DNA of 64,000 nt, taken from positions 1,013-65,012 of the forward strand of contig JACOYB010000005.1 in the NCBI GenBank assembly GCA_016182085.1, given 5' to 3'. Under the pieces are notes generated by a model that had not been told where the DNA came from, searched no databases, and saw nothing but the letters and a program-made list of their open reading frames with translations. The stretch is from Candidatus Magasanikiibacteriota bacterium. GTDB lineage: Bacteria; Patescibacteriota; Patescibacteriia; Magasanikbacterales; GWA2-37-8. A program made the translations under genes and the position numbers. Shown one piece after another: positions 7,989-44,975 of the stretch (its first letter is position 1; each line of letters opens with the position of its first letter).

Positions 7989-7993
7989 ATTAT

Positions 7994-9679: not shown

Positions 9680-9711
9680 ATTAATTTTTGACTATTTTTT
9701 TAATTTTTCTT

Positions 9712-9741: not shown

Positions 9742-9859
9742 GGAATAATCAAAAATTCATATATTTTCATAGGTTTGATAGGGAGTTCCTACCTCCTCCG
9801 AGCGCGCACGGGTGGGCGGGGCAAGCGCGGAGAAAAGAAAAGTTTGCTTTTGGCCACCG

Positions 9860-9940
9860 TAAAGTTCGAGCCTATAATCGAAATGAGTGAGTGAAATATT
9901 TTGCTTGCAAAATTGTTTCCGAGCGAATGAGTTTATATCT
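9860..9940 (+). repeat. Dispersed intergenic repeat family, copy a
   Basis: CGAAATGAGTGAG, a hairpin, then CGAGCGAATGAGTTTATAT. Confidence 0.6.
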
Positions 9941-9982
9941 TAATATTTTTTTACAGGTTGTTTGGCAGTTTTTAAAAAGCGC

Positions 9983-10145
9983 ACTCGCCTAGGCGAGGCG
10001 GGCGGAATTCCTCCCCCAACCCCTCCTTCCGCCCGTCCTATTCCGTAAATTCCCCTCGTAATTTTTCGTATCCCCGCTGCGAAAACCGAAATGGGGTTAA
10101 AATTGGTAAAATCCCCCAACCTTTTTTGGCTAACCAATCAAATTT
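9983..10145 (-). repeat. IR-B, the right inverted repeat of the defense island (inverted copy of IR-A)
   Basis: The 88-bp core matches IR-A with 1 mismatch. The outer part begins GATTGGTTAGCCAAAA, as IR-A does, and then diverges (~70% identity). Small palindromes sit at the inner ends (CACCGGTG in A, CTCGCCTAGGCGAG in B). Confidence 0.8.
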
Positions 10146-10206
10146 TTTGCCTTTGTCCGCTCGGCGGACGCCAAAAGCAAACTTTTCTAATATAATGTAA
10201 TTTTAT

Positions 10207-18452: not shown

Positions 18453-19532
18453 TTATAATGTTGTAAATCCTAAAAATATCGTTTTACCATTTTCTTTATT
18501 TATGAGCAGTTCTACCGGAATGGAATTAGTTGGTAGTTTTTTGGTTACCCAGTTTGCGCCGCCATCGCTCGTTTTATATAATGTAGACCGAACATTTTGA
18601 TTGTTGTCTCCCAAAATCGTACCCGTATAATACATTTCCGAAAGATTTTTTGGATTCTGGGCAAAACCGTAAATGTTTACGCTGCCCGGAGGCGTAAGCA
18701 GTTTAATGTCGCTCCAACTGGCGCCGGCATCTGCCGAGCGCAAGATACCATACTTGGAAATCCAAAACAAGTTATCTTTTTGGGTCGGACTAAAGACAAA
18801 CCTATAAAAACTCATACTGCCGTTAAAATTTTCAAAACCGTTGCTGGCGCTTGTCCAAGTTACGGCTTCGTCTTCGGAACGATACAATCCGGTTTCATAG
18901 GCTGCGACATACAATCGTCCGGGATTAAACGGGTCAACTGCCAAATGCCGCAATTGAAAATTAAAACTATGTACCAAACGCCAACTGGCTCCGCCGTCTT
19001 TACTCCTAAAAATATCACCGCCCGACTGAGCCGCATAAATTATTCTTGGATCGGTATAATCAACCGCAATCGCGGCCATGCGCTGTGTGGGCCGCTCTTC
19101 AGAAAAAACGAGTTTCCAACTTCTCTGGCAATCGGTAGTTTTATAAATATGAGTGCCATCACTTGCGTAAATTGTACATTTATCGGCTGGGTCAACCGCT
19201 AAGGCATAAATATATTTACCCGTCATAAAAGGACTTGCTTCCCAAGTATCGCCATTGTCATAGCTATAATACAAACCCTGTCCTCGCGTACCCATATACA
19301 ATGCTTTTGGATCGCTTGGGTCGGTAAACATTTTATATACCTTGGCACCCGACAAATTCTTTATGCCTTGGGCGGTAACCAAAGTATTTTTTTGCTGCCA
19401 GGTTTCACCGCCATCATTTGATGTAAACGCTCCCATCGGCCCTTGCGCGCTACCGGTAAATTGGATACAACCGGCACCGGTAAGCACTACGGCCATAACG
19501 AGCGCCGATAAGACGTATATTTTTTTAGACAT
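18453..19532 (-). CDS. BNR/Asp-box repeat lipoprotein (Ycf48-like beta-propeller)
   Basis: A lipoprotein signal (LTGAGC) is followed by at least 6 Asp-box motifs (GGETW, DNGDTW, DGGASW, DAGASW, DGGANW). Confidence 0.65.
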   Translation of the reverse strand: MSKKIYVLSALVMAVVLTGAGCIQFTGSAQGPMGAFTSNDGGETWQQKNTLVTAQGIKNLSGAKVYKMFTDPSDPKALYMGTRGQGLYYSYDNGDTWEASPFMTGKYIYALAVDPADKCTIYASDGTHIYKTTDCQRSWKLVFSEERPTQRMAAIAVDYTDPRIIYAAQSGGDIFRSKDGGASWRLVHSFNFQLRHLAVDPFNPGRLYVAAYETGLYRSEDEAVTWTSASNGFENFNGSMSFYRFVFSPTQKDNLFWISKYGILRSADAGASWSDIKLLTPPGSVNIYGFAQNPKNLSEMYYTGTILGDNNQNVRSTLYKTSDGGANWVTKKLPTNSIPVELLINKENGKTIFLGFTTL

Positions 19533-20574: not shown

Positions 20575-20955
20575 CTACTGCTTAAGCTTGGATTTAACTT
20601 TTTTTACGAGATCGTCTATATTCCAATCGGATTTTATAAAATAGTCATAACACCCTTCCTTGGCTGCCTCTGCTTCTTTTTTTTCATCGCTTAAGTTGGT
20701 AAGCATAATTATTGGCACGGATTTTCCCCAAGGATCTTGGCGCAATTTATTTAGCATAGTCATACCGTCCATAATAGGCATCAATATATCCAATAAAATA
20801 ATATCCGGGTGATGCTGAAAGGCCTGTTCCAAACCAATCTGACCATTAGGGGCTTCAAATACCTTAAACTTTTCTATAGTAAATTTTTTAGCTAACACAG
20901 CCAAAAGGGCTTGTTCGTCTTCCACGATAAGAACTTTGTCTAATACTTTTGGCAT
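20575..20955 (-). CDS. Stand-alone response-regulator receiver (CheY-like, no output domain)
   Basis: The protein is 126 aa. The motif DIILLDILMPIMDG contains the phospho-Asp. Confidence 0.8.
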   Translation of the reverse strand: MPKVLDKVLIVEDEQALLAVLAKKFTIEKFKVFEAPNGQIGLEQAFQHHPDIILLDILMPIMDGMTMLNKLRQDPWGKSVPIIMLTNLSDEKKEAEAAKEGCYDYFIKSDWNIDDLVKKVKSKLKQ

Positions 20956-20970: not shown

Positions 20971-23900
20971 TTATATGGATAATTCTTTGTCGCCAACTAC
21001 TCTTTTCATTCCGCTTGTAGGTATGGCTACATGAAACACGCTTCCCTTTCCTTCAGTTGATTCAAACCATACTTTTCCACCGCCTGTTTCTATAATCAAC
21101 TTTACAATATACAGACCCAAACCGATTCCTTCGGTACTAACCTTAACCGCATTATCGGCGCGAAAGAACTTGCTAAAAACCTTATCTTGATCTTTAGAAG
21201 GAATACCTATGCCTTCGTCCTTAACGTCAATCTGACAGTGCCCTTCAACTTCTTTAAAACCAATTTCTATCTTGCATTTTCTTGATTTAGAATAATGTAT
21301 GGCATTGTTTAATAAATTTAAAATAACTTGTTTGAGCAACACAGGATCCGCATCAATAAGAGACGCCGGCTGATCCGATTCATTGAATATAATAGCACAG
21401 TTTCTAGCATTTGCAACGGAATTAACTTCGGAAATAACACTGGAAATAAGAGAGGCTATATCCGTTGGCTTTGGCTCAATCTTGATTTTTTGGGCTTCCA
21501 AACGAGAAATGTTAAGCAGAGATTTAATTAAATCGGCCATGCGTTTTTCTCCATTCTCTATTTCATTAAGATACCTTTTTTGTTCAACGGTTAATTCTCC
21601 CGATTTCACATCCCTTAGCATTTCCGTATTCCATTTTATCGCCGTAAGAGGGGTGCGCAACTGATGGGAGGCAAAAGAAATAAAATCCGTTTTCATTTGT
21701 TCCGCTTCTTTTAATTTGGTAATATCTCTCTCTACACCGACAAAAAACTGCACCTGATTATTCTTGTCTAAAACCGGAGCAATTCTAACTTCAGCAGTAT
21801 AGGGCTGGCCGTTTTTTCTATGATTTATTATTTCACCGACAAAAGGCTGTTTTTGGATATCATCAATGACAGTCCACAATTTCTCATAATATTCTTTTGA
21901 CATGTTTCCACCCCAAAGATCCCCGGCATTTTTTCCAATAACTTCTGCCGACATGTAGCCGGTAATTTCTTCTCCGGCTTTATTAACATACAAAATAGCG
22001 CCGTCTTTATCGGTAATCATTACATGATCGGACTCGTTATCTACGGCTAATTTAAATTTCTCCAAATCTTTGGCCAGCAGATCGACTTTTTCTTTTTCTT
22101 TTTTTATATCTTCTTCCGCTTTTTTGATTTTGGAAATATCCATGCCCCAAACAACTATATACAGCTCTTTATTTAATTCAATGCGCGCGGCATTAAAAAA
22201 ATAAATAGCGTGGCTGCGGCCTCTATTAAGCAAATGCTCTACTTCAAGCTGAGCCGAACCTTCACGAAAAGTTTTCTCCATTGCCTCTATGATTTTAACC
22301 CTGTTTTCCTTTGTATAAAACCACTCCAACGCCTGTTCATTTGACATTGTAGAAATCTCTTCACTGGTACGACCGGTAACGATTTCTAAGTTTTTATTCC
22401 AACGCGGAGTACCACCTCTTTGACTTATCATCGCAAATGTACCGGGAAAAGTTTCCATTATAGCATCGGAAATAACTCGCTCGTTTTTAAGCTCCAAAAC
22501 TAGCTGCTTTTGCTTGGTTATATCGCGCGCGGTGGCATAAGTAATTCCTTTGTCTTTATCGTAAGTGGCAATCCATGAAAGCCATAACACCCTGCCGTCT
22601 TTACATATAAAACGATTCTCAAAATTTAGCGAGGAACCTACTTTAATTTGCCGCGCCATTTCATCTAGCGTGGCCTGCTTGTCTTCGGGATAGACAAAAT
22701 CAATAAATGGTTTCGTCAAAAGATCCGCTTCGGAATATCCTAGAATTTTCAAACAAGCCAGGTTCACCTTCTTAAAGGCGCCGTTTGGATCCGCAATAAC
22801 CATGATGTCGGAAGATAAATTAAAAAAATTAAAAAATTGCTCGCGCTCAAACTCGGCTTTTTTACGCTCGGTAATATCTGTAAAGACGGCCATGCTCCCG
22901 GCAAAATCTCCTTTTTCATCAAAAAGCGGAGTGGGCGAAACTATCGCATTTATTTTTAACCCGTCCTTACGCAACCCCACAATTTCATAGCTCGCGCGCT
23001 CCCCTTTGCGTCTTTTTACCATCTGCTCTCTATAAATTTTTTGATTTTCTTCATCAAATAAAATAGTGGCTGATTTACCTATTAACTCTTCCGGTTTATA
23101 ACCAAGAACTGCACTGCCTCGATTATTAATAAAACTAATAATCCCCTTTTCATCCTGAACCGCTATCCCTTCGTCCATTATATCAACCAAGTTATGAAAC
23201 CGCCCTTCTTTTCTTAGTAAGTCTACATCTACTTTCGTTTTATACTCTTCCTGTTTCTTCAATAAACCAATGCCGGCTGTGACTACCGCGGACAAAGTAA
23301 AAATATTTAAAATGGTTTCCAAACCCACATTAAAACCAAGCGTGTACAACCCGATATATTTACCATATTCCACCAACCAACCGATGATTGGAGGGATAAT
23401 AAACATTGTAGGAAGAAAAATACGTGACATTTTCCCGGCAAAACTACGCATAACTAACACTCTGGTAAAACCGCGATCCGGATGCGCAAATAAAATACCA
23501 AGATGAAATATAAAAAAAACTATTACCGTATATAATGGCACGGCGGGAGAAACTGCGACACCCTGAACAAAAGATGGTACATTGTGAATATAGCCCACAA
23601 GCGCAACCAAAGAAATAAACCCGCCCATAATAGCCATGACTTGCGCCGGACGCACACCGCGCTTGGTCTCAAAATCTAAAAACAAAAGAGCTAACCCAAA
23701 AAAAATAAAAACAATAGCGCCGCCTAAGGACATTTTTCCTAGATTTACGACCCAATTAGATGTAGCTACCAATCGAAAAAATAATTCACCCGCAAAAAAA
23801 TTGTTACCAAGCACATACCCTGCAAAAGATATGATACCCAAAATAAATACAAATAACGCGCAGCCCCTGCCTAAATTTCTCACCCACCTTTTTGATCTTT

Positions 23901-24156
23901 TTTCCTGCTGCAGCCATAAAGCTAACCCGAGAAACATGGCGCCTAGCGCAGAGTGAGGCGCCATGAGCGAAAAATTATGAAAGATGCTTGTTAAAATAGC
24001 TATTTTTAAATTCCAACTAACTAAAACCAAAGCCCCAACAACAAAAATCAAAATGCTCGAGGCCTCTGAAAAAACCTTCATACTTGAAACGATCCGAGAG
24101 TCAATGGGCATGTACGGTGAATATTTTGTCCCCTCCATAAATTGTTTAGTTAGCAA
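20971..24156 (-). CDS. Multi-TM, multi-PAS sensor histidine kinase
   Basis: The protein is 1061 aa. An N-terminal polytopic membrane region is followed by repeated PAS/PAC segments, an H-box (HQLRTPLTAIKW) and a HATPase_c domain. Confidence 0.85.
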   Translation of the reverse strand: MLTKQFMEGTKYSPYMPIDSRIVSSMKVFSEASSILIFVVGALVLVSWNLKIAILTSIFHNFSLMAPHSALGAMFLGLALWLQQEKRSKRWVRNLGRGCALFVFILGIISFAGYVLGNNFFAGELFFRLVATSNWVVNLGKMSLGGAIVFIFFGLALLFLDFETKRGVRPAQVMAIMGGFISLVALVGYIHNVPSFVQGVAVSPAVPLYTVIVFFIFHLGILFAHPDRGFTRVLVMRSFAGKMSRIFLPTMFIIPPIIGWLVEYGKYIGLYTLGFNVGLETILNIFTLSAVVTAGIGLLKKQEEYKTKVDVDLLRKEGRFHNLVDIMDEGIAVQDEKGIISFINNRGSAVLGYKPEELIGKSATILFDEENQKIYREQMVKRRKGERASYEIVGLRKDGLKINAIVSPTPLFDEKGDFAGSMAVFTDITERKKAEFEREQFFNFFNLSSDIMVIADPNGAFKKVNLACLKILGYSEADLLTKPFIDFVYPEDKQATLDEMARQIKVGSSLNFENRFICKDGRVLWLSWIATYDKDKGITYATARDITKQKQLVLELKNERVISDAIMETFPGTFAMISQRGGTPRWNKNLEIVTGRTSEEISTMSNEQALEWFYTKENRVKIIEAMEKTFREGSAQLEVEHLLNRGRSHAIYFFNAARIELNKELYIVVWGMDISKIKKAEEDIKKEKEKVDLLAKDLEKFKLAVDNESDHVMITDKDGAILYVNKAGEEITGYMSAEVIGKNAGDLWGGNMSKEYYEKLWTVIDDIQKQPFVGEIINHRKNGQPYTAEVRIAPVLDKNNQVQFFVGVERDITKLKEAEQMKTDFISFASHQLRTPLTAIKWNTEMLRDVKSGELTVEQKRYLNEIENGEKRMADLIKSLLNISRLEAQKIKIEPKPTDIASLISSVISEVNSVANARNCAIIFNESDQPASLIDADPVLLKQVILNLLNNAIHYSKSRKCKIEIGFKEVEGHCQIDVKDEGIGIPSKDQDKVFSKFFRADNAVKVSTEGIGLGLYIVKLIIETGGGKVWFESTEGKGSVFHVAIPTSGMKRVVGDKELSI

Positions 24157-24196: not shown

Positions 24197-25933
24197 CTAC
24201 TTTAAACGTCTTACTTCCTGGCCGATATATTTTTTTATTTTAGCAACCGTATCTTTCATTTTATTTATGAGCGCGGCCGCTTTGGTGGAACGAAAGGAGT
24301 TATGTTGTTCTTGCACCCCTTCAAGCTCCTTCAAACAACCGGATAAAATATCAGATAGCTTATCAATGTCACGACCGACAATAACTCTATACACCTCTCG
24401 CGTCTTTTTTGTAGAAATGTAGTACCAGCCGCCAATGCCCGTTACCGACATTCCCACGAGTATAACGATGATGAGTATCTCTAGCCACCCCAAATCAATG
24501 ACGCCAAAGGAAATTATAACTTTTGGTTTTACTTGGAATACGGGCGAATCAACCGGAAAACTCACGGCTCCGCGCTCATCCCGTGCGGTAATGATAAAAG
24601 TGTATTTCCCGACTGGCAAAGTTACACCAATGGATGTTTCCCAGCCTCCAACACCATCACTCGCTATCTTACCGGTTAATTTCTCCTGATTCTTGCTGTC
24701 AACTATGCGGAAATCAACAAATGCGTTGGGTATGGTTTTACCGGAGACAAACAGGGGTTCGCCTTGCGAAACGGTTTTGGTAATAAAATCAACGGTTGGA
24801 GCGGGTAGCGGCAATACTTCAAACGCAAGATCATCTTCAGCGCTGTTACCGGCTTTATCAAGGACGCGGACTAACACAGTGTGCTTGCCCGGAGATTGCG
24901 GAGGCGGAGTAAATTCCATACCAGATACTTCAACAAGGTTTTGATCGTCAATAAATATAACGGCATGCGATATGCCCGATAGACTATCTTGTGTTTCAAA
25001 GCGTAATTGGGGTGAAGGGTTGTCGCTTGCTACCGTATCCATTCCTATTTCAAAAGGAAGCGGCGCGGTGGTGTCAATCAAAATTTTATAATGTGTTACC
25101 GATCCCCAACCAATATTATTCTTAAACCGCACATGAATATACCACACCCCCTCTTCCAGAGTTCCGAATTTCTTGCCGGTGAACAGTTCTTTTTCTATAT
25201 TTTTAGGATCAGTGTTAGGGCTATGATCAAGAACAGTTGCTACTTGGGTAATGTCGGCAGGAACTTCCCAGAGGGCGACTATTTCGCCCAAATGGTTGTA
25301 CCAATGCGTTTCATCCGGATATAAGGGAACTTGAACAACGGGCTTCTGCGGAAGTTTCGTGGAAACAATCGGCTTTCTTTCTACTCGCACCGGCTGCGGC
25401 ACCGGTTTGGCGGATTCTATGGTAGCCGGTTTGGGAACTGCAGGCTGAGCCGTCGTCGCGCCAATCGTATAGCTTGCCTCTTTTATTTTAGAAAGTATAT
25501 TGGTTCCCTTGCCATCACTTGCGGTAACCGCCGCATCGGTTATGAAAATACTAGCCGCACCCGCGCCAAGCGCTTTAAACTTCACTTTCAAAATCTGAAG
25601 CGCGCCACCGGAAATCCCCTTGGCTGTCCCGCCAATAAAACTGAGAGAGTTTTTGGTGTCTGATAAAACAGGGTCTGTTACCCAAAAATTGAAAGCCGAT
25701 CCGGCTTTGCTAACTTCAACAAATTCTAAAATATCAACCGGCCAATTTATTGTTGCTTGGGAGGCGTTGATGCTTTCCGCTTCTGAGTCAATTTTAATAT
25801 CAACAGAGAACTCTGCGCCGATATTAAAGCCGCCGGTTTCGGGAACCGTATAAATAACCGCTGCGTTAACCGACTGCGCAAAGACAAAAAAGAATAGAGA
25901 TGCGACAATTGCTTTAAATACTTTTTTAAACAT
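24197..25933 (-). CDS. Cohesin-domain surface protein with a C-terminal TM anchor (scaffoldin-like)
   Basis: A signal peptide is followed by a ~140-aa cohesin-like beta-sandwich (VIYTVPETGGFNIGAEFSVDIKID...ILEFVEVSKAGSAF) and a Pro-rich linker. A C-terminal TM helix and a cytoplasmic tail end the protein. Confidence 0.5.
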   Translation of the reverse strand: MFKKVFKAIVASLFFFVFAQSVNAAVIYTVPETGGFNIGAEFSVDIKIDSEAESINASQATINWPVDILEFVEVSKAGSAFNFWVTDPVLSDTKNSLSFIGGTAKGISGGALQILKVKFKALGAGAASIFITDAAVTASDGKGTNILSKIKEASYTIGATTAQPAVPKPATIESAKPVPQPVRVERKPIVSTKLPQKPVVQVPLYPDETHWYNHLGEIVALWEVPADITQVATVLDHSPNTDPKNIEKELFTGKKFGTLEEGVWYIHVRFKNNIGWGSVTHYKILIDTTAPLPFEIGMDTVASDNPSPQLRFETQDSLSGISHAVIFIDDQNLVEVSGMEFTPPPQSPGKHTVLVRVLDKAGNSAEDDLAFEVLPLPAPTVDFITKTVSQGEPLFVSGKTIPNAFVDFRIVDSKNQEKLTGKIASDGVGGWETSIGVTLPVGKYTFIITARDERGAVSFPVDSPVFQVKPKVIISFGVIDLGWLEILIIVILVGMSVTGIGGWYYISTKKTREVYRVIVGRDIDKLSDILSGCLKELEGVQEQHNSFRSTKAAALINKMKDTVAKIKKYIGQEVRRLK

Positions 25934-25944
25934 ACGGGTTTTGT

Positions 25945-28296
25945 CTAAATATTCATCGCTCTTAAAAATATGCTAAAATCAAAAATGTTCACTTTGCCAT
26001 CTCCGCTTAAATCGTTTTTCAGCCTAGATTCATCGTTGTCGCTCCCCCACTGAAAAAGAAAAATACTCCAGTCGTTAATATTCACTTTGCCGTCGTTATT
26101 AAAGTCGGTCTTTAGAGTGGGTTGTTTTGACAATTTAAAAACACGCGATGTAGAGAACCCGCTTTTTTTACCATCTAATGTAGTTTGCCGTACTTGCGCC
26201 CGGTGTTCACCGTAAGCAAGAACAGTCGCATCCACATTAAAATTGTAAAATCCGGATTGAGTTGCTTTGGTATCCTGAAACTTTTCTCCATCTACCTCTA
26301 ATTCTACCACATTATCCGGTAAAGCGTAACCATCAATTTTCAAAACATCATTTTTTGTAATTAACGCTTTTTCAAAAACCATTGTCGGAGGAATCAAAAT
26401 GTCTTTAACTTCAAACAGATCGCCCGGCAGATTTACGTAAAAAGGAACGCTAAATGCCAATGCCCCCGAGTTTATCCCGTTTTTATCGTACGCTCGCAAA
26501 GCAAATAAATAATCCGCGCGGATTAGCCCGGTAACAATAATAACAAAAGAACCGTCTTCATTTATCACCGAACTTTCCGAAGGGGCGACGATATATGTTT
26601 CGTCTTCAACAAGTTTTCTTAGCACCTCAATTTTACTTTGCGGATATGCTTGTCCGGAAAAAATAACTCGCCGCGGCTGCGCGCTACCGCCGCTGGCAGA
26701 CGGGCTTGACGCCGCGCTAGGCGAAGGACCGCCATTAGCCAATGTCGTCTTGCTCGGCACATTGGAAATACCGGAAGTATTGGGCACTTCATCGGAAGTT
26801 TTGATTGCAAAATAATAAACCGTGCTGGTGGATAAACCGGTAACCATCATTGAATTACTGGAACCAGCCGCGGATGGAGTTGGTTCACCGGCTACTTGAG
26901 TTGCTGAAGCAAAATTACCTTCTGTAATAGCAGAGGTGGAATAACGTAAATCATATGAGGTGGCAGTACCGGTAGTTCCGTCATCACCGGGCGCTGTCCA
27001 AGAAAGATCCATAGACGAGCCGGTCGGGTTTGATGCGGCCAAATCGGAAACTACCCCCGGAGCGGTGGTGTCGGAAGATATAATATCTACGATTGTGTCC
27101 CCCATCAGATCATCAGTTGAAGCCAAATCCCAAGTCACATATATGCGCTCATTGGACATGGCATTAACTCGCGCCCCATAAAGATCGCCGGCAGTAACAT
27201 TTACCGGGCCCTGCTCGGCCCCCCATGTAGCCATACCATCGGTAGATTTTTTCCAATATACATTTCCGCTAGCGGCCGTACCGGGCGTAGAGCGCGCGGT
27301 ATAAACCGCGTAAATCTCACCCGCGCTTTCATCAAAACTAATTTTTACACCGGTAATGCCTTTTGAATCATTGGTTAGGACATCTGTTTTTGCAGTCCAT
27401 GCGCCGCCGGAATATACCGCTGTCCGTATATCATCATCGGTGCCAAAGGTGGCAACATCAGTAGCATACGCCAAATAAATATCGCCGGTTGATTTTTTAA
27501 GTGTGGCGCCAAAATGAGCATCGTAAGTACCGTCCTCTATGGCGTTGGCATCAATAGTGGCCCAAGAAGAATCCCAAGAATTTGCCGAGTCATTATAGAC
27601 TTTTGACAGAACATCATCAGCCGACATATCCCAACTAATTGCCAAAATATTTCCACTTGAAAGCGGCATCAAAATTAACCAGTCCGTTGCCAAGTCAAAA
27701 GGAATGGCACCGGCTTCTGTCCAGTTGGCAGCAGATGCGCAGTTAGCTCCGGAAACGCATTTGATAACAAAAGAATCTCCGGCATCTTGCACACCCATAT
27801 AAACATCGCCGTCTGTTCCTTTGGTAATAGAAGGAATATTTGACCCCACCGCAAATCCGCCGCCTTGATTGGCGCCACTGGCATTTACAACGGTGGTTAA
27901 CGTATCGTCAGAAGTATTCAGTCTCGCATACCAAATATCGGCAGCGTCCATGGTCGTAATATGTATATATGTGCCAGACGTGTCGCCGGGGGTCCAACGG
28001 TCATACCAAACAGCAATTTTAAAACAGTCGGTCTGAGAATCAACCGTCACGGACGCACCCCAAGAAGTACCGCCATCGGTGGTTTTGCTATAAGCGCAGG
28101 TACCGGCAGAATCACGAAAGAAAGCGTAACCAACTTGATCTGAAATAAATACCACGGTTGGCGAACTGCCATTGTGGGAAGTAAGGGTAGTATGAATAGA
28201 ACTATCAATGGCTACGTCTGCCGCAAAAATAATCACGGGTACGGCAACCAAAATCAGCAGTAAAATTAACAATAAAAATGTTTGTTTCATTTTCAT
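25945..28296 (-). CDS. Secreted BNR/sialidase-like beta-propeller, FN3 and C-terminal type-I dockerin protein
   Basis: A signal peptide is followed by Asp-boxes (TDGGTSWGA, STDGMATWGA) and an FN3-like segment. The C-terminus carries duplicated dockerin Ca-binding segments, DFNNDGKVNINDWSIFL and DLSGDGKVNIFDFSIFL. Confidence 0.65.
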   Translation of the reverse strand: MKMKQTFLLLILLLILVAVPVIIFAADVAIDSSIHTTLTSHNGSSPTVVFISDQVGYAFFRDSAGTCAYSKTTDGGTSWGASVTVDSQTDCFKIAVWYDRWTPGDTSGTYIHITTMDAADIWYARLNTSDDTLTTVVNASGANQGGGFAVGSNIPSITKGTDGDVYMGVQDAGDSFVIKCVSGANCASAANWTEAGAIPFDLATDWLILMPLSSGNILAISWDMSADDVLSKVYNDSANSWDSSWATIDANAIEDGTYDAHFGATLKKSTGDIYLAYATDVATFGTDDDIRTAVYSGGAWTAKTDVLTNDSKGITGVKISFDESAGEIYAVYTARSTPGTAASGNVYWKKSTDGMATWGAEQGPVNVTAGDLYGARVNAMSNERIYVTWDLASTDDLMGDTIVDIISSDTTAPGVVSDLAASNPTGSSMDLSWTAPGDDGTTGTATSYDLRYSTSAITEGNFASATQVAGEPTPSAAGSSNSMMVTGLSTSTVYYFAIKTSDEVPNTSGISNVPSKTTLANGGPSPSAASSPSASGGSAQPRRVIFSGQAYPQSKIEVLRKLVEDETYIVAPSESSVINEDGSFVIIVTGLIRADYLFALRAYDKNGINSGALAFSVPFYVNLPGDLFEVKDILIPPTMVFEKALITKNDVLKIDGYALPDNVVELEVDGEKFQDTKATQSGFYNFNVDATVLAYGEHRAQVRQTTLDGKKSGFSTSRVFKLSKQPTLKTDFNNDGKVNINDWSIFLFQWGSDNDESRLKNDLSGDGKVNIFDFSIFLRAMNI

Positions 28297-28692
28297 TTAT
28301 TTTGCCTGCGGATGAGATTCTTTTGCAAAAAAGTGCTGCACTTTTTCTATAATCTCACCTACGGGATGATCTGATTTTACGATATAATCATCTGCTCCGA
28401 GCCTGAGACCTTTTTTAATGTCATCATCTTCGCCAAGCATAGTAAGAACTATCACGGGGATGGCTTTGGTACCCGGGAATTTTTTAAGTTCTTCTAAAAC
28501 CTCGAAGCCGTGCTTTTTAGGCAACACTAAATCCAGCAGCACCAGGTCTGGGTGTTTGGATTTCACCATTTCCAAACCCGATTCGCCGTCAAATGCCTGC
28601 AAAGCATCAAACCCGGCATCAAAAAGTTCGGTATAGAGCACTTTGGCAAGCACTTCGTCGTCTTCTACTATTACAATTTTAATTTTCTCCAT
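28297..28692 (-). CDS. Stand-alone response-regulator receiver
   Basis: The protein is 131 aa. The motif DLVLLDLVLPKKHG is present. Its stop abuts the dockerin gene start. Confidence 0.8.
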   Translation of the reverse strand: MEKIKIVIVEDDEVLAKVLYTELFDAGFDALQAFDGESGLEMVKSKHPDLVLLDLVLPKKHGFEVLEELKKFPGTKAIPVIVLTMLGEDDDIKKGLRLGADDYIVKSDHPVGEIIEKVQHFFAKESHPQAK

Positions 28693-28867: not shown

Positions 28868-29998
28868 TTATTTATCCTGCAAGTACACGGGAACAAATCC
28901 TTTTTCTCCTTTTTGCGCTTTTGCCACCAAGGGAATTTCTATATAAAAAGTAGAACCGCTTTCTGCATCTCCGCCCGCCGTAGTTTTTTTAACTAAATTA
29001 GGAGATTTAAACCAAATTTTGCCGCCAATGAGCCCGGCCGCTTGGGAAGCAATATATAGCCCCAGACCGCTGCCATCAGTCTTAACGGCAGCCGCATTTG
29101 ACGCGCGAAAAAATTTCTCAAAAATATGAACCTGCTCCTGTTTTGGTATTCCTATACCCGTGTCCCGAATCATAAAAAACGCGGCGTTGTTTTTCTTTTC
29201 TATGCCCACCTCTACCTTTCCTCCTTGAGGAGTATATTCAATGGCGTTTCTAATAATATCTTGCAAAATATAATCCAACGCGTTTCTGTCGGTAGTGGCG
29301 GCAAGTTTTTTGAGGTGGTTAGTAAATATAAGTTTTAAATCTTTTTTTTCAGAGAGTGTCTGAAGCCTGCTTATAAGTTCTTTTGTAAACTTTACCAGGT
29401 CTAAATCTTCCGGCGCTACCATTATGCGCCCCGACTCAATCCGCGATATATTCAACATGAGTTTTATCAGCGTATTAAGACGCGAAGCTGAGTAAATAAT
29501 ATCGCGAAGATATTTCTTTCCACTCTCCGTTAATTTTTCTTTTTCTAAAAAAAGTTCGGCTGTCCACCTAATCCCGGTCAAAGGGGTACGAAGCTGATGC
29601 GAGGCAAGAGAAACAAACTCGGTTTTTGAACGATCAAGCTCTTTTAAACGAGTAACGTCGTGGAGAATTATGATTCCCCCGATAGATCCTCTTTGCTCGT
29701 GCAGGGCGGGCGTAATGGATATCTCAAAAAAAAAGTTTGCCAAAGAAATTTCTTCTGTGCGGATGACCTTATCTTTTTTTATCGCCTCGCCAACTTTATT
29801 TTCCAAGTCCAGAGCGGGAAATAATTTGTAAAATTTTGAAAGGCCATACCCTTCCCGAGGCAGTCCGGTAAAACTCATGGCCGCCGGGTTTGCCAGAATA
29901 ACTTTTTTCTTTGCGTCAAATATAATTACCCCGTCTGTAAGGCTTGAAAGAATAGTGGTAATAACATCTTGCGGCAAGATCTTGGTCGTTTCCGCCAT
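28868..29998 (-). CDS. PAS sensor histidine kinase (cytoplasmic)
   Basis: A PAS domain, an H-box (HQLRTPLTGIRW) and a HATPase_c domain are present. The protein is 376 aa. Confidence 0.85.
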   Translation of the reverse strand: MAETTKILPQDVITTILSSLTDGVIIFDAKKKVILANPAAMSFTGLPREGYGLSKFYKLFPALDLENKVGEAIKKDKVIRTEEISLANFFFEISITPALHEQRGSIGGIIILHDVTRLKELDRSKTEFVSLASHQLRTPLTGIRWTAELFLEKEKLTESGKKYLRDIIYSASRLNTLIKLMLNISRIESGRIMVAPEDLDLVKFTKELISRLQTLSEKKDLKLIFTNHLKKLAATTDRNALDYILQDIIRNAIEYTPQGGKVEVGIEKKNNAAFFMIRDTGIGIPKQEQVHIFEKFFRASNAAAVKTDGSGLGLYIASQAAGLIGGKIWFKSPNLVKKTTAGGDAESGSTFYIEIPLVAKAQKGEKGFVPVYLQDK

Positions 29999-30191: not shown

Positions 30192-31199
30192 TTATTTTGT
30201 CGCTAGTATGCTGCGTTTATAGTTTTCTAAATTGTCTAGAGCAATACCGGTGCCTTTGGCCACACAAAGCAATGGCTCTTCGGCCACATAGGTAGCCACG
30301 CCCGTTGCTTGAGCGATAAGTTCGTTTAAATTTCGCAGCATGGCCGAACCGCCGGATAAAATTATGCCTTTGTCTATTACATCTGCCGAAAGTTCAGGCG
30401 GGGTTTTGTACAAAACTGCTTTTACCGCCTCAGTTAAATTACCCAACTCATGCTGCAAGGCTTCGGTCGTATCATCGGAACTTACCATAATAGTTTTTGG
30501 CAAACCGGTAATCATATCGCGGCCTTTTACTTCCATAGTCAGAGGTTTTTCCATATACATGGCCGAACCAACTTTAATTTTTATATCTTCGGCTGACCGC
30601 TCGCCGATCGCCAAATTATATTTATGGCGAACATATTCCATGATAGCTTGGTCAAATTTATTGCCGCCCACGCGAGCCGAACCCCAAGAAACTATTCCGC
30701 CCAGAGAAATCACGGCAATTTCGGCTGTGCCGCCGCCAATATCTATAATCATATGTCCCGAAGCCGCGCCAATCGGAATATCAGCGCCAATTGCGGCCAC
30801 CACCGGTTCTTTAATGATATATGCCGCGCGCGCGCCGGCAGCGATGGTGGCGTCAATTACAGCTCGGCGTTCGGTGGAAGTAATGCCAGCCGGCACGGCC
30901 ACCATAACTTCCGGACGAAACAAACGCACACCGCCTAAAGCTTTATTTATAAAATACCTAAGCATGGCTTCGGTGGTATGGTAGTTGGCAATCACGCCAT
31001 CTTTAAGCGGGCGTTCGGCCAAGATCGCGTCCGGAGCGCGCCCAATCATATCTTTAGCCTCAACTCCTACGGCGAGCACTTTGCCATCGGCTTTAGATAC
31101 GGCCACAACACTGGGTTCATTAATAACAATTCCTTTTTTTGGAACATATACAAGCACGTTAGTCGTACCCAGATCAATGCCGATTTTTTTGATAAACAT
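30192..31199 (-). CDS. mreB: Rod-shape determining actin homolog MreB
   Basis: The N-terminal GIDLGTTNVLVY and the actin fold match MreB. The protein is 335 aa. Confidence 0.9.
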   Translation of the reverse strand: MFIKKIGIDLGTTNVLVYVPKKGIVINEPSVVAVSKADGKVLAVGVEAKDMIGRAPDAILAERPLKDGVIANYHTTEAMLRYFINKALGGVRLFRPEVMVAVPAGITSTERRAVIDATIAAGARAAYIIKEPVVAAIGADIPIGAASGHMIIDIGGGTAEIAVISLGGIVSWGSARVGGNKFDQAIMEYVRHKYNLAIGERSAEDIKIKVGSAMYMEKPLTMEVKGRDMITGLPKTIMVSSDDTTEALQHELGNLTEAVKAVLYKTPPELSADVIDKGIILSGGSAMLRNLNELIAQATGVATYVAEEPLLCVAKGTGIALDNLENYKRSILATK

Positions 31200-31288: not shown

Positions 31289-32722
31289 TTAATTAGCCAA
31301 GCCTACTTCTATACTACGATCAACTGTCAAATCCGTTTTATAATTATATTTTTGATCGCCGATATTTTCTTGAGCTTCACTTGGGCTTGCTGATACGATA
31401 TTTTTACCAAAATTAAGGTTGAGCGTCAATTTATCCGCGATTGTTCCTAATTGTTTTTGCACAAGCAGATTATACGAATTATTTTTTATTTGCCCAGCTA
31501 CTTGCGGCGCCACATAAAACTGCCAGGCGAGCTCACCGGTTTTGCCCGGTTCAATGGAAATAAATGCGCCAAACCACTGTCGGCCGTTTTCCATTCCTTG
31601 ATCTACAGCTCCGGGTTCGATTGATCTGTCTGTTTTCATACTGCCGGAAACCGAAATAAATTTACTGCCTTCAGGCAAGAAAACCCTGGCATACGTTCTG
31701 TATCTCGTTGTAAATTTCGTAAAGCTGCCATTGTTTTTATATTTCATTTTTACCGTGCCAACATATTTATCCGTGCCGCTTGGCGCAACCGAATACGACA
31801 ATTCTTTATCCATGACCTTATCGGTTTTAAGCGCGGCCATATTGGCATCCGCCCATAATATATAATCTTTTTTATCCTGTTTCATTTCTCCGCTCCAACC
31901 TCGGGCTACCAAAATTTTTTGTATTTCCGAATCCGTGGAATACGCCAAAATATGTTTCTCCAGCAACATGCGCTGGCTTAAAGCAAAATAACTGGACCAG
32001 TGTTTAAATAAATCGCCGCGGATGCGAGCTAAAAGCGCATGGCTTAAATCGGCTAAAATTTTCTTGCGCTCGTCAAAATGCAAACCATCTTCGGCAAAAC
32101 CAAACTCCACTTCATATTCCAATTTTTCCGTAAAGTTGTCCGCGTTAAATTCTTCGCCATTTACGGTAATCGACCCGCTGATGCGCAAAATTTCTTCAAG
32201 CAGAGTGGGTGTAATTCCAATCACGCCCGTAATTTCATCCGCCGAAACGCCGCGTTCTTTTTTAAACAAGTCCAGTGATTTCATGGAAGAGGCTGCAAAA
32301 TCCGGCGACCAGTTGCTGTCCCTAAAACCCCATCTTTTGACGAGCACATATTTTTGCAGCGGTTCGGGCGGCACAGACTCAAAATCTTGCGGCGCCTGGT
32401 TATCTAAAATTTCAGTTCCTTCCACTTTTAAAATATGGGGTATGCCTTTATCAACTCGCACCACGCTATAGGCGCCGATAAATCCCCCGCCCGGACGAAT
32501 TTCAGTATTGTTTAAAAACAACACCAAATAGGTCTGTGGTTTTTCAAAACCCAATACTTTCGGAACCAGGATATTTTCCGCCGGATCAGAAACAACCGTT
32601 TCGGCAACTTTTTTTATTACAGCCGATTGCAATCCGCCTTGGGAACGAGACCAGCGCCACAGCCCCAAAGCGCCGATAACAACTAGCGCAAAAAGTAAAA
32701 TAAAAATTATTTTTTTTATCAT
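31289..32722 (-). CDS. Membrane-anchored hypothetical protein (N-terminal TM, large extracytoplasmic domain)
   Basis: The protein is 477 aa with a single N-terminal TM. It lies next to the processive GT2 synthase. Confidence 0.4.
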   Translation of the reverse strand: MIKKIIFILLFALVVIGALGLWRWSRSQGGLQSAVIKKVAETVVSDPAENILVPKVLGFEKPQTYLVLFLNNTEIRPGGGFIGAYSVVRVDKGIPHILKVEGTEILDNQAPQDFESVPPEPLQKYVLVKRWGFRDSNWSPDFAASSMKSLDLFKKERGVSADEITGVIGITPTLLEEILRISGSITVNGEEFNADNFTEKLEYEVEFGFAEDGLHFDERKKILADLSHALLARIRGDLFKHWSSYFALSQRMLLEKHILAYSTDSEIQKILVARGWSGEMKQDKKDYILWADANMAALKTDKVMDKELSYSVAPSGTDKYVGTVKMKYKNNGSFTKFTTRYRTYARVFLPEGSKFISVSGSMKTDRSIEPGAVDQGMENGRQWFGAFISIEPGKTGELAWQFYVAPQVAGQIKNNSYNLLVQKQLGTIADKLTLNLNFGKNIVSASPSEAQENIGDQKYNYKTDLTVDRSIEVGLAN

Positions 32723-32745: not shown

Positions 32746-34230
32746 CTAACTTCTCTTTTTTACGGAAACGTTAAAACCAAGGTATTTGCCAAACATGAGA
32801 TGAGAAACCGCGTCCAGACAAGGCAGCGACGAAAAGAAAATAAGCGATATCGGCAAAAGAAACCATTGCAGAATCATAAATAAATATCCATGACGCGGGT
32901 GATTTTCCGGACGTGCCGGTAAAATCAACATGCTCATTACGGCTGAAACGAGCAGCCCGAGCATAGCCAGGGTCATCAGAATTTCTAAAATATTGGGGGC
33001 ATTAAAAAATAACGCGCTCTGCCGAACTTCGTTTCCCGCCACCCACAGAGGCAATCGGCCAATGAGGGTGATAAGAATTGCCACCACCGCCCAACTCCAC
33101 TTGCCTTCCCATTCATGAAACAGCACTGATATTTTTTTAAACCAGGGAATTTTTTTATTCTGGCGGAACTGCCATAATAAATACGGAATATGTTCCGTGC
33201 CCCAGGCCCAACGGCGCTGCTGCAAATATAAATTTTTCAAACTGCGCCACCACGAGTCGTCGCGCACCGTATCCATGGATACGGGGATATACATTGGCGT
33301 GACTTCATAATCTCCATTATACCGCAACCAGCATTGATAAAAAATACGCGAATCTTCGCTGACAATGTCCTTGCTATGCCCCCCGCAATCCATAATCGCT
33401 TTAAAACTCATGCTGTGCGAAGAAAATGTAACCAGGCTGTCTAACCTGGCCAAGCTAAACAACATCCAAAAACTGGTACCGAAGGCCATGATACGGATAA
33501 TGGCCGGCGACTCCCACAAATTATTATTATACAAGGTGAGCGGCTGGAACGAACTGTGATCTGGCCGCGGATGATTATTATACAAATACGCCAGATGCGC
33601 AAAGTATTCGCTATGCACAATCGTGTCAATATCAAAAACCGAAGTAATAATATCTATGTACTCCCAGCCGCGCTGGTCGGCATATTTCTTAAATTCCCAT
33701 TCGGCATAGTGAATATTGGAACCTTTCCCCGGAATTTCATCGGGCAAATTTTCCGGATGCGTATAAAAAATTATATCCGCGAATTTTCCCGAATAATTCT
33801 CAACAACTAATTTTTGTATGCCTTGCAAGTGTTCCGGTTTTCTAGCTTCGCCGGAAATTACCAGATAGGTTTTGCCGGCTGGAAAGCTGGATTTTAAAAA
33901 ACTATCCAATGTCGGCGCCACCACATCCCAACTTTCATTATATAGAGGCAGAAAAACGACATTCTTTCTTTTTTCCCAATCTGGAAATTCGGCTTTAAGT
34001 TTTTCAAACCAATTTATTTTTACGGCCTTGCGGAAACGCCTCCAAGACAAAAACAAATAAAAAGAAAAATATGATACGCGGATAACCCAATACACATCAA
34101 AGACCAAGATAAAATAAATCATCCATAACGGCTTGGCAAAGGATAAGATAATGGTCAAAAAAATCGTAAGCCAAATACTTAAGCCCGGTAACATTTCGTA
34201 CAGACGATACCTGTGATAATTCGAGATCAT
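32746..34230 (-). CDS. Processive GT2 glycosyltransferase (cellulose/chitin/hyaluronan-synthase-like) with flanking TM helices
   Basis: N- and C-terminal TM helices flank a GT2 core. The QxxRW motif (QQRRWAWG) and D,D,D-type motifs are present. Confidence 0.65.
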   Translation of the reverse strand: MISNYHRYRLYEMLPGLSIWLTIFLTIILSFAKPLWMIYFILVFDVYWVIRVSYFSFYLFLSWRRFRKAVKINWFEKLKAEFPDWEKRKNVVFLPLYNESWDVVAPTLDSFLKSSFPAGKTYLVISGEARKPEHLQGIQKLVVENYSGKFADIIFYTHPENLPDEIPGKGSNIHYAEWEFKKYADQRGWEYIDIITSVFDIDTIVHSEYFAHLAYLYNNHPRPDHSSFQPLTLYNNNLWESPAIIRIMAFGTSFWMLFSLARLDSLVTFSSHSMSFKAIMDCGGHSKDIVSEDSRIFYQCWLRYNGDYEVTPMYIPVSMDTVRDDSWWRSLKNLYLQQRRWAWGTEHIPYLLWQFRQNKKIPWFKKISVLFHEWEGKWSWAVVAILITLIGRLPLWVAGNEVRQSALFFNAPNILEILMTLAMLGLLVSAVMSMLILPARPENHPRHGYLFMILQWFLLPISLIFFSSLPCLDAVSHLMFGKYLGFNVSVKKRS

Positions 34231-35384: not shown

Positions 35385-37673
35385 ATGGATAAAACACTAC
35401 ACCTGCATGAATTTTTCGTGGAAGGAAACAATCCCGAAGAATCCCATGTCTTATTAAATATCACTGAACCCTCTACTTCAGCCGAAAGAAGCAAGGGCTA
35501 TTTTTTCGTAATCTGCGAAATAAACAACGGCGATACCAAATATATCGCCAAGATGCAAAATATCATAGATGAGATAGAAAATAGTTACTACGAAATTCCA
35601 GATCAAGAATACCAAACTGCCTTAGAAATTGTCTTAAACAAGATCAATCAAGAAAACATGTCCATGATCCAGCCAGAGATTGGCTTGCATTGCATTGTGG
35701 GCGCGATTCGCGAAAATGATATTATCTTTAGCTTTTACGGGCATCCGCAAATGGTGCTTTTCTATAAAATCAAGGATGGTCTATTATATAAAAAAATGGA
35801 TTTGGTAGAAGAAAATAAATCTACCGAAAACTCGGAAAACAACCAGCTGTTTTCTCAAATTGTTCAGGGAAAAATCGGCCCCAACGATTTTTTCTTTGCC
35901 GGTACGCCAAATATTATAAACTACTTCAATCATGACCGCCTGCAAAAAATTATTACTACCCGCCCTCCGCGCCAAAGTTCCGAACACTTGCAGCGAGTAT
36001 TGTCCGAACTTCAAAACAATATTTCATTTGGCGGCATCATAATTAACCTGCAAAAAAGTACGGAGCCTATTCCAACTCCAAGAATCTCTCCTGTTAAAAA
36101 AGGAGAATCCGCCCGCTCATTAAAGAGCTTGTTTAGCACTGAACAAAATACAGCGAGCATTCTCTCTCCGTCTTTACTGCCAAAATTTCAAGACAAAGTA
36201 AATAATGCCTTTACCGATCAAGAAGAGCCGGAAATGATGCAGCCAAATCCAACCGGCTTGCGCGCCAATACCGAAATTACTTCTTCACACTTACGCGCCA
36301 GACAAGACCGGATACGACCAGCGGCGAGACCTAACACCCAGGAAATAATTAAAAAAATAATATTTATTATCTGGCAAATCCTAAAATACACGGGCCGAGC
36401 AATCATGATTCTCTTGCTTTTTATTGGCGCTGTGTTTTCCACGCTTGGCAGAAACGCGATGTTATTATTTTTCGTGGCTACCAATTACCAAAACAGACGC
36501 CGCAATATTTTGACTCAGTGGGGCAACTGGTGGCGCAATCTAAAGAATAACCTTAAGCAACTGCCGCTCATTACCAAAGCTTTGCTTATTGTCTCCATAA
36601 TTTTAGTGCTCGTATTTACCGTTGGAATCGTGTATGTAAAAAATAAACAGAAAAAAGAAGTTCGTGTAAAACAATCCATGCAAATCGCTCAGATGATACA
36701 AAATAAACAAGATGAAGCCGAGAGCTCTTTGGTATACGGCGATACGGATACGGCTATAACCAAACTACAAGAGGCCGAAGAAATTCTCACCACTCTCCCT
36801 TGCGAAACAAACGCTGAAAAAGCAACGTGCCAAAACCTGCAGATCCAACTAGCTGCCTTACAATTAAGGGCTCGCCATATTACTCTGGTCACCCCGCAGC
36901 TTCTGGCGGATTGGAATACGCTCGCTCCCAACAACCAAATGGAAAATATCTTCTTGCTTAACAATAAAATTTACGGATTTGGCAAAACCAACTCCGATAT
37001 CTTGGCCTATGACATGCTGACCAAAGAGTCACAGCTCACGAGTCCAAACTTATCTGTAAACAACTTTATTACAGTTTCCGTACCAAAAGAAAATGATTAC
37101 GCGGTACTGCTTTATGACAACCAACACGTGGCACAGTTCCAACCAACGGACAATTCCTGGAAAAAGGTAGATATCTCCTACCCTGCTCAAAATGCTAGCA
37201 TTTCTAGTTTGGCCGTATATAATCGCAGACTCTACACCCTGGACGCTCAAAATAATAAAATCTATCGCCATGATTCAATTAAAACCGGCTTCTCCACAGG
37301 CAAAGAATGGACCCAAAATAACACGACCGATATTAAATCCGGCATTGATATGTCTATAGACGGCGATGTCTTTATCTTAGGCAAGAACGGCAGCATTTAT
37401 AAATTTACCAAAGGCCAGACACAAAACTTTAATCTTTCCAAAATTGACCCACCGCTCACTTCGGCTGATAAAATTTGGACATATAATGATCTTAACTATC
37501 TTTATATTTTAGACAGTGCTGGCAAAAGAATTATCATTGCGGATAAAACCGGTGAATTCAAATCTCAGATTACAGCCAGTGAATTTGTCCATCCTACGGG
37601 CATGATCGTAGATGAACAAAAGAAAGCCGCCTTTATCTTGGATAATAACAAGTTGTACCAGATTGAGCTGTAA
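35385..37673 (+). CDS. Large multi-domain membrane protein (N-terminal soluble domain, central TM helices, C-terminal beta-propeller-like repeats)
   Basis: The protein is 762 aa with central hydrophobic helices. The C-terminus has NHL/propeller-like repeats (NKIYRHD, KRIIIADKTGEF). It is the only long plus-strand gene in the window. Confidence 0.4.
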   Translation: MDKTLHLHEFFVEGNNPEESHVLLNITEPSTSAERSKGYFFVICEINNGDTKYIAKMQNIIDEIENSYYEIPDQEYQTALEIVLNKINQENMSMIQPEIGLHCIVGAIRENDIIFSFYGHPQMVLFYKIKDGLLYKKMDLVEENKSTENSENNQLFSQIVQGKIGPNDFFFAGTPNIINYFNHDRLQKIITTRPPRQSSEHLQRVLSELQNNISFGGIIINLQKSTEPIPTPRISPVKKGESARSLKSLFSTEQNTASILSPSLLPKFQDKVNNAFTDQEEPEMMQPNPTGLRANTEITSSHLRARQDRIRPAARPNTQEIIKKIIFIIWQILKYTGRAIMILLLFIGAVFSTLGRNAMLLFFVATNYQNRRRNILTQWGNWWRNLKNNLKQLPLITKALLIVSIILVLVFTVGIVYVKNKQKKEVRVKQSMQIAQMIQNKQDEAESSLVYGDTDTAITKLQEAEEILTTLPCETNAEKATCQNLQIQLAALQLRARHITLVTPQLLADWNTLAPNNQMENIFLLNNKIYGFGKTNSDILAYDMLTKESQLTSPNLSVNNFITVSVPKENDYAVLLYDNQHVAQFQPTDNSWKKVDISYPAQNASISSLAVYNRRLYTLDAQNNKIYRHDSIKTGFSTGKEWTQNNTTDIKSGIDMSIDGDVFILGKNGSIYKFTKGQTQNFNLSKIDPPLTSADKIWTYNDLNYLYILDSAGKRIIIADKTGEFKSQITASEFVHPTGMIVDEQKKAAFILDNNKLYQIEL

Positions 37674-44963: not shown

Positions 44964-44975
44964 ATGATTGAAACC

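Follow-up and report, generated by a model that had tools for sequence, protein, structure and literature searches.

Anchoring scaffoldins such as SdbA, OlpB, Orf2p and ScaE are attached to the cell wall by surface-layer homology (SLH) modules or by sortase, and they bind the type II or type III dockerins of scaffoldins. Functionally they are the nearest precedents for the gene pair analysed here; its nearest precedents otherwise are the non-cellulosomal cohesin–dockerin pairs of archaea and Clostridium perfringens. The pair lies in a 64-kb stretch of DNA from a Candidatus Magasanikiibacteriota bacterium (contig JACOYB010000005.1 of assembly GCA_016182085.1; the whole stretch is hereafter the window) and comprises the genes of a 783-aa secreted dockerin protein, DOC, and of COH, a 578-aa anchor protein of type I membrane topology that carries the cohesin. 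Patescibacteria, or Candidate Phyla Radiation (CPR), account for much of the diversity of bacteria, and the majority are believed to live attached to other cells; to our knowledge, the molecules that mediate this attachment are largely unknown. In the literature searched we found no paper linking a cohesin–dockerin pair to Patescibacteria, Parcubacteria or CPR.

In the saccharibacterium Southlakia epibionticum, a dockerin-domain envelope protein of 927 aa, SEML1_0315, is essential (Wang et al. 2023, PMC10633639). On the same strand its gene is preceded by those of a PAS histidine kinase (SEML1_0318), a response regulator (SEML1_0317) and a tRNA-Glu (gene table of PMC10633639), and the gene beside it, SEML1_0314, is that of a convergent alpha/beta hydrolase (PMC10633639). 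No ECOD cohesin identifiers are found in the supplement of that study (PMC10633639). Here we compare the DOC–COH locus with these systems and conclude that the pair is probably a non-cellulosomal cohesin–dockerin tether, one that would be standard equipment in many Patescibacteria.

The dockerin of DOC and the cohesin fold of COH

The interval 24197-28296 of the window consists of two minus-strand open reading frames (ORFs), DOC (25945..28296) and COH (24197..25933); all further coordinates of the pair and its flanking genes are likewise on the minus strand. Their extents and co-oriented adjacency are exactly as given in a preliminary description of this DNA, which had called the 578-aa protein the upstream one; that holds in plus-strand coordinates but not in transcription, where DOC comes before COH. 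Both proteins are 100% identical to proteins named Candidatus Magasanikbacteria, a Patescibacterium, which agrees with the small-genome, possibly episymbiotic host suggested at that stage.

DOC ends in a dockerin (residues 728-783; 25948..26115) that is recognised by Pfam PF00404 above cut-off, by a family profile and by the helices of the AlphaFold2 (AF2) model of DOC (mean pLDDT 80.9). The duplicated Ca-binding segments reported earlier for this end of the protein are present as quoted, with residues 730-746 reading DFNNDGKVNINDWSIFL and residues 761-777 reading DLSGDGKVNIFDFSIFL. The two Ca-binding loops are DFNNDGKVNIND and DLSGDGKVNIFD, spaced 31 residues apart and each followed by a D[WF]SIFL helix. 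Loop 1 (D-F-N-N-D-G-K-V-N-I-N-D) and loop 2 (D-L-S-G-D-G-K-V-N-I-F-D) thus form the two duplicated loop-helix segments of ~22 residues, with acidic or amide residues at positions 1, 3, 5, 9 and 12, by which dockerins are defined; position 3 of loop 2 is Ser. In an alignment of 28 orthologous C-termini, D1, D5 and D12 are invariant in both loops and a D-[WFL]-S-[IV]-F-L helix start is common to both halves. As read from this alignment, the repeat is an internal symmetry of the kind typical of dockerins, and such symmetry may permit dual binding.

Direct sequence searches of DOC and of COH against solved structures returned nothing significant, and we therefore used profiles and fold comparison. 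Pfam Dockerin_1 (PF00404) scored 24.3 bits against DOC residues 730-779, above its curated cut-off of 22.9, and 12 of the 16 sampled DOC orthologues scored 23.7-40 bits. A profile of the 28 orthologous C-termini matched solved dockerins over their full length (2y3n_B, 9e-10; 4fl4_A, 9e-9; 2vn6_B, 1.7e-7), with generic EF-hand proteins interleaved among the dockerins, the best of them from 2.4e-7. These best matches span complexes titled type II (2y3n_B) and type I (4fl4_A, 2vn6_B), so the initial label of a canonical type I dockerin is not supported. In the AF2 model the dockerin helices are residues 740-750, 755-759 and 771-782. Across six frames of the window, the two loops are the sole motifs of this kind and DOC holds the sole dockerin.

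COH opens with a signal peptide (residues 1-24; 25862..25933; hydropathy, with a conserved A-x-A-A motif there in the alignment), for which cleavage is predicted between AQSVNA and AVIY. The domain that follows (residues 25-160; 25454..25861) is assigned as a cohesin from its AF2 model, from Foldseek and from PF00963 matches of homologues. In COH, Pfam and NCBIfam found nothing but Ig-like domains. PF00963 is matched by 15 of 37 aligned full-length homologues (42-72% identical; best E 3.5e-8) while the COH of the window fails it, so its cohesin homology is supported transitively, through relatives rather than by its own sequence alone. A COH family profile had cohesins as its best matches among PDB sequences (E 0.03-0.16), and some COH homologues are already named "cohesin domain-containing protein" by the NCBI pipeline.

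An AF2 model of COH residues 24-165, built with a 25-sequence alignment, is an all-beta domain of nine strands (pLDDT 92.2, pTM 0.84), as in the flattened jelly-roll sandwich of ~140 residues that characterises cohesins. Each of its top 42 Foldseek matches among PDB structures is a cohesin (E 1.7e-9 to 1.5e-5; TM up to 0.79, and 0.73-0.79 for type I and archaeal ones). Among them are C. acetobutylicum CohA2 (1.7e-9), the non-cellulosomal Archaeoglobus cohesin 2xdh, which ranks second (2e-9), and the type I cohesin of OlpC (TM 0.79). Type I, type III and archaeal cohesins (TM 0.68-0.79) are closer to the model than type II cohesins (0.58-0.66), at 10-18% sequence identity to solved cohesins. 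The modelled N-terminal domain clearly has a cohesin fold, and the cohesin-like beta-sandwich proposed from first inspection is borne out, its refutation by some other fold having found nothing to stand on. The dockerin-binding face of cohesins is the 8-3-6-5 sheet. With strands numbered by their order, the invariant residues of the COH cohesin map to strands 3, 5, 6 and 8 as well as the 8-9 loop, which is suggestive only.

The cohesin is followed by a Pro-rich linker (residues 161-200; 25334..25453), seen in the sequence and the alignment, and by an Ig-like stalk (residues ~201-470; 24524..25333) that matches Pfam Big_13 at 40 bits and is conserved in the alignment; NCBIfam matches of OmpL47 type and to Ca_tandemer are weak. 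Repeated motifs suggest that the stalk is split into three Ig-like domains. Four giant proteins, P0241 (4269 aa), P0244 (5620 aa), P0246 (2468 aa) and P0338 (4044 aa), match the COH profile 18-47 times each, with the matches confined to the Ig-like stalk region (profile positions ~260-470), and the stalk domain therefore also serves as a tandem repeat in very large proteins. By hydropathy, COH has the pattern of an N-terminal signal-peptide-like segment, one C-terminal hydrophobic helix and a basic 75-aa tail, in keeping with the transmembrane (TM) anchor and cytoplasmic tail already proposed. The single TM helix is placed at residues ~478-503 (24425..24502), within a hydropathy segment of 471-506. 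The tail (residues 504-578; 24200..24424) has conserved alignment columns, with W503, Y515, R521, D522 and Y569 as conserved residues, and neither Pfam nor NCBIfam gave a family match for it. STKKTRE after the helix would, by the positive-inside rule, place the tail in the cytoplasm.

DOC begins with a hydrophobic helix (residues 1-26; 28219..28296; hydropathy, model helix 3-22), a likely signal peptide with cleavage predicted between VIIFA and ADVA. Its head is a beta-propeller (residues ~28-405; 27082..28215) of ~27 strands in 6-7 blades in the AF2 model, followed by an FN3 domain (residues 416-501; 26794..27051; Pfam fn3 32.9 bits, cut-off 25). Behind a disordered Ser/Pro linker (520-539) stand two Ig-like beta-sandwich domains (residues ~541-722; 26131..26676), drawn from model strands and pLDDT and a weak Big_6 match; this Ig-like pair is kept in the aligned orthologues. 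Of the BNR/FN3 composition first given for DOC, the FN3 part stands, and the BNR part rests on a BNR_2 match of 26.5 bits, under its curated cut-off of 31.4, and on a single strict Asp-box, at residue 72. A second propeller protein of 359 aa (18453-19532, minus strand) is encoded three genes downstream of the cassette; it is without a dockerin and passes the Pfam thresholds for Sortilin-Vps10, BNR_2 and PSII_BNR. Paralogy between the DOC propeller and this protein was considered and rejected, as the two have no significant similarity beyond Asp-boxes.

Conservation of the pair across Patescibacteria

Relatives of COH were found in 481 species-level genomes in a scan of one genome per species. 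Hundreds of homologues are full-length, at 43-80% identity and all of 560-610 aa. An exhaustive search with the COH profile gave 17,264 related cluster representatives (50% identity clusters), 2,392 of them at E<=1e-30; among the top 150 clusters nearly all are of 560-610 aa and match end to end. We fetched the loci of the best 80 of the 481 COH-encoding genomes. By record titles these are Patescibacteria-type metagenome-assembled genomes (MAGs) from many candidate phyla, apart from several with generic or other labels that we suspect are mislabelled. Many 'binchicken' MAG records (L005, L006, L037, L073, L074, L078 and others) are titled 'uncultured Candidatus Saccharibacteria' or 'uncultured Gammaproteobacteria'; these look like generic or wrong taxonomic labels, and the lineage spread of the cassette therefore needs re-deriving from marker genes.

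Hidden Markov models built from the loci found exactly one dockerin in 75 of the 80 and exactly one cohesin in 74. In those 75 loci the dockerin always forms the extreme C-terminus of the protein encoded directly before COH on the same strand. Neither the window nor 1.1 Mb of related loci yielded a second cohesin or dockerin, apart from a Harrisonbacteria locus (L053, 7566-11110) in which two tandem full-length COH genes stand behind one DOC. In two further loci (L036 and L043, around 7850-9780) COH is divided between two ORFs, by a frameshift or an assembly error.

The remainder of DOC varies freely. Complete DOC genes encode 141 to 2,336 aa, and one truncated gene more than 2,646 aa. The 16 sampled orthologues, chosen from different sizes, carry FN3 (up to six stretches), Ig-like, YDG, InlB-B-repeat, Kelch, Sortilin/BNR and DUF4215 domains; no catalytic Pfam domain was found in any of them, and CBM96 occurs in one Lloydbacteria orthologue. 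Mean pairwise identity is 44% for the cohesin and 46% for the dockerin, against 40% for the stalk, 25% for the tail and 30% for the Ig region before the dockerin. Cohesin and dockerin are thus the best conserved segments of COH and DOC, and the COH tail is the least conserved.

The case for cohesin and dockerin as binding partners is indirect but strong: even in distant Patescibacteria they stay side by side, one to one, and the remaining DOC sequence is freely exchanged. A constant plug and socket with a freely exchanged head is what a tether with cargo predicts, and this is our main argument for mutual binding. Related genomes by the hundred have this pair next to two-component genes, which suggests that it is a standard device with which these bacteria probably fix an exchangeable binding protein to the cell surface.

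Gene block and two-component neighbours

The pair stands in a co-oriented block transcribed in the order 376-aa histidine kinase (HK), 131-aa response regulator (RR), DOC, COH, 1061-aa HK and 126-aa RR. The first gene (28868..29998) encodes a soluble kinase with Pfam PAS, HisKA and HATPase_c matches and without a hydrophobic segment. The 131-aa (28297..28692) and 126-aa (20575..20955) regulators match Response_reg only, and the 1061-aa protein (20971..24156) is a membrane kinase with ~6 TM segments by hydropathy and 3-4 PAS, HisKA and HATPase_c matches. HisKA and HATPase_c kinases are therefore encoded together with receiver partners, as in two-component systems (TCS), and Pfam upholds the two kinases and two receiver-only regulators first described as flanking the pair, a feature conserved in related loci. 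In the junction sequences the TAA stop of the 131-aa RR abuts the DOC ATG and 11 nt separate the DOC stop codon from the COH start; 40 nt separate COH from the start of the 1061-aa HK. From this operon-like packing the HK, RR, DOC and COH genes appear to be co-transcribed. A promoter and terminator scan of the block gave counts no higher than in shuffled sequence.

Linkage to two-component genes extends to the related loci. Of 51 loci with sufficient flanking sequence, 34 have a receiver-only RR directly upstream of the DOC gene, and in 30 of those 34 an HK lies directly upstream of the RR or RRs. On the downstream side, 37 of 69 loci have a TCS gene (regulator or kinase) directly after COH. 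In 38 of the 44 loci that show both flanks, a co-oriented TCS gene directly adjoins the pair on at least one side.

Several neighbouring features are recorded here in their own right. MreB (30192-31199) and a DUF4012 protein (31289-32722) sit between the cassette and a 494-aa ORF (32746-34230, minus strand) that by the look of its sequence is a polytopic membrane protein. This ORF and two other large ones, of 762 aa (35385-37673, plus strand) and 584 aa (62215-63969, minus strand), have no Pfam match at 1e-5 or 1e-3. An apparent defence or mobile island occupies 1692-11694, with a G+C of 0.36-0.38, lower than in the remaining window. It holds a type I restriction-modification system, with HsdR (1692-4607), HsdS (4604-5746) and HsdM with an N-terminal MerR HTH (7994-9679). 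The genes of a ThsA-Macro (Thoeris-like) protein (5749-6648) and of a Bro-N protein (7176-7988) break up the system between HsdS and HsdM, and behind HsdM comes a large serine recombinase on the opposite strand (10207-11694). A long co-oriented envelope and polysaccharide block spans 43881-61288 (minus strand), with a nucleotidyl transferase, several GT2 glycosyltransferases, a bifunctional-type PGI/SIS protein, an NDP-sugar 4,6-dehydratase/epimerase, FtsW/RodA (54089-55204) and a UDP-glucose/GDP-mannose dehydrogenase.

Mechanism, rival explanations and comparison with known systems

We propose that COH would be exported and anchored by its single C-terminal TM helix, holding one cohesin off the membrane on the Pro-rich linker and Ig-like stalk. 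DOC would be secreted and captured non-covalently when its Ca2+-loaded C-terminal dockerin docks onto the COH cohesin. The cell would then display a large head, exchangeable in the course of evolution: here a beta-propeller with FN3 and two Ig domains and in other lineages FN3 arrays, Ig arrays, YDG, InlB-type repeats or Kelch. Because the head consists of binding-type modules, it more likely serves to attach to or recognise a surface (host cell or glycan) than to act in catalysis, and the co-transcribed histidine kinase and receiver-only regulators would most likely share or control the expression of the pair. Physical binding, its Ca2+ dependence, surface exposure, co-transcription and an adhesive role are features that we infer for the pair, whereas the domain identities, the membrane topology pattern, the 1:1 synteny, the variable head and the two-component linkage are observed.

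Several results weigh against such a tether. The COH of the window has no PF00963 match even at E<=1. One locus (L060, ~7550-9740) has COH with an RR directly upstream and no adjacent DOC, and for the genome studied here the count of one cohesin and one dockerin rests on 64 kb, with further copies possible elsewhere. No cohesin gene adjoins SEML1_0315 in Southlakia. In a mirror-tree analysis with a partial Mantel test on 63 pairs, cohesin and dockerin correlated (partial r 0.34, p 0.001), but cohesin and the neighbouring Ig region correlated as well (0.41); there is therefore no specific cohesin–dockerin co-evolution signal, the mirror-tree reflects shared history only, and we dropped it as evidence of partnership. 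The propeller may also be glycan-active, which would count against a purely adhesive head. The mirror-tree result and the Southlakia arrangement would both fit a reading in which DOC and COH are independent surface proteins, the dockerin being a Ca2+-stabilised module or binding some other cohesin or carbohydrate and the adjacency reflecting shared regulation of envelope genes; many non-cellulosomal dockerins are without a known partner (compare the dockerin-type giant proteins of Omnitrophota). We consider this unlikely. In 74-75 of 80 loci a single dockerin strictly adjoins a single cohesin, although the lineages are only 32-56% identical and the rest of DOC is freely replaced; further arguments are that cohesin and dockerin are the most conserved segments of their proteins and that no second cohesin or dockerin turned up in the window or 1.1 Mb of related loci. 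Docking of an enzyme, a sialidase or glycoside hydrolase (GH) displayed as in a minimal cellulosome for foraging on surface glycans, is highly improbable. The head is indeed a propeller with one Asp-box and a weak BNR_2 match, its Foldseek matches include sialidase-fold hydrolases (5mvh, 5mum, 4irt, 2w20) and PL24/25 ulvan lyases, and C. perfringens has cohesin–dockerin pairs on GH33 and GH84 enzymes (PDB titles 2vo8, 2w1n, 2jnk/2ozn). However, BNR_2 stays at 26.5 bits against its cut-off of 31.4, a search of DOC for the FRIP motif [FYWLIV]R[IVLA]P found none, and the best TM-scores of the propeller model are with non-catalytic Photorhabdus PLL lectins (0.64-0.73, rmsd 4.4-8.0; PLL5 0.69-0.73), whereas the hydrolases (~0.40) and lyases lie at 0.36-0.53. 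DOC and COH have no Pfam match at threshold to a GH, polysaccharide lyase (PL), carbohydrate esterase (CE) or carbohydrate-binding module (CBM), orthologues carry FN3, Ig, YDG or Kelch modules in place of the propeller, with no catalytic Pfam domain in the 16 sampled, and the locus has one cohesin and no other dockerin. Because the motif, Pfam and fold evidence for a sialidase is weak and the head is swapped among orthologues, the modelled head favours binding over catalysis; the sialidase or enzyme first suggested for DOC is not supported, although some catalytic activity keeps a small probability.

The two-component genes allow COH to be seen as a sensor and not only a tether: the DOC head would bind a ligand or host, and the signal would pass through the dockerin–cohesin joint and the COH TM helix to the tail and on to the kinase and regulators. 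Adjacent, co-oriented HK and receiver-only RR genes (38 of 44 loci) fit this, as do the tail residues W503, Y515, R521, D522 and Y569, which are invariant or nearly so across distant lineages although the tail is the least conserved part overall. The upstream kinase of the window is soluble, with a PAS domain as its sole input, and receiver-only regulators act by protein contacts rather than DNA binding. Yet of 41 upstream kinases, 27 are themselves predicted to contain one or more TM segments, 19 of them in the classic two-TM sensor layout, and would not need COH as input; only 14 of 41 lack TM segments, so COH as a transmembrane input for soluble kinases was downgraded to, at best, a minority mechanism. 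TCS genes also vary in number and position by locus (upstream, downstream or both), the COH tail matches no known signalling domain, and co-regulation explains the adjacency equally well and is the simpler reading. Outside-in signalling through COH thus seems to us a doubtful prospect. A broader idea, also rather unlikely, is that HK-RR-DOC-COH is a lineage-wide, signalling-coupled attachment organelle required for episymbiosis, in which an adhesin plugged into a cohesin stalk is joined by the tail, the kinase and CheY-like regulators in reporting or controlling host contact; it is hinted at because an essential dockerin-domain protein sits behind an HK-RR pair in Southlakia epibionticum. For the favoured tether, the widespread pair with its constant joint, hypervariable head and signalling link is a concrete candidate, open to test, for the recognition of a host or substrate, and it would extend the cohesin–dockerin principle to single-pair, membrane-anchored, non-enzymatic display in a new phylum-level group. 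The conserved dockerin could serve as a handle for finding surface-exposed, fast-evolving proteins in these organisms, and the pair as an orthogonal protein-tethering part.

Compared with the type I pairs of cellulosomes (C. thermocellum OlpC and OlpA-dockerin 4dh2/3ul4, C. cellulolyticum 2vn5/2vn6, C. acetobutylicum CaCohA2 6kge), the COH cohesin has the same fold (TM 0.70-0.79), and the DOC dockerin likewise has two duplicated Ca-binding loop-helix segments with PF00404 and profile matches and, as in cellulosomal enzymes, stands at the C-terminus of a secreted modular protein. Unlike cellulosomal type I cohesins, COH is only 10-18% identical to solved cohesins and fails PF00963. Nor is it a multi-cohesin scaffoldin: COH has a single cohesin, with one dockerin protein per locus. 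No CBM or GH is found here, the displayed protein resembles an adhesin, the pair belongs to a Patescibacterium, and anchoring is by a TM helix and cytoplasmic tail instead of SLH or sortase. What survives of the preliminary description is the idea of a pair and its anchor, a cohesin fold on a membrane-anchored protein beside a C-terminal dockerin; one cohesin, one dockerin, the lack of CBM and GH and the TM anchor leave no place for its term 'cellulosome-style'. Of its proposed Pfam checks, PF00404 came out above cut-off and PF00963 failed for the window protein, with matches in 15 of 37 homologues.

The proteins of Archaeoglobus fulgidus (2xdh) and the toxin and GH modules of C. perfringens (2jh2, 2vo8, 2w1n, 2ozn) are closer, in that the tether likewise lies outside cellulose degradation and the systems are likewise small, with one or few pairs; 2xdh, the second-best structural match of COH (E 2e-9), has a TM of 0.74-0.76. 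In contrast to COH, they are not TM-anchored stalks and not a conserved adjacent pair with two-component genes, and the C. perfringens cargo is enzymatic, unlike the DOC head. SEML1_0315 of Southlakia can be likened to DOC by description and gene order: this large envelope protein is rich in Ig and FN3 domains and contains a dockerin, has a Patescibacterium as host and has an HK-RR pair before its gene, so that SEML1_0315-0318 would resemble the 5' half of the cassette (HK-RR-DOC order), with no adjacent cohesin gene in Southlakia. By analogy with the anchoring scaffoldins, finally, COH would act as a cell-bound cohesin that captures a dockerin-bearing partner at the surface, and it differs from them in doing so with a membrane helix and a conserved cytoplasmic tail.

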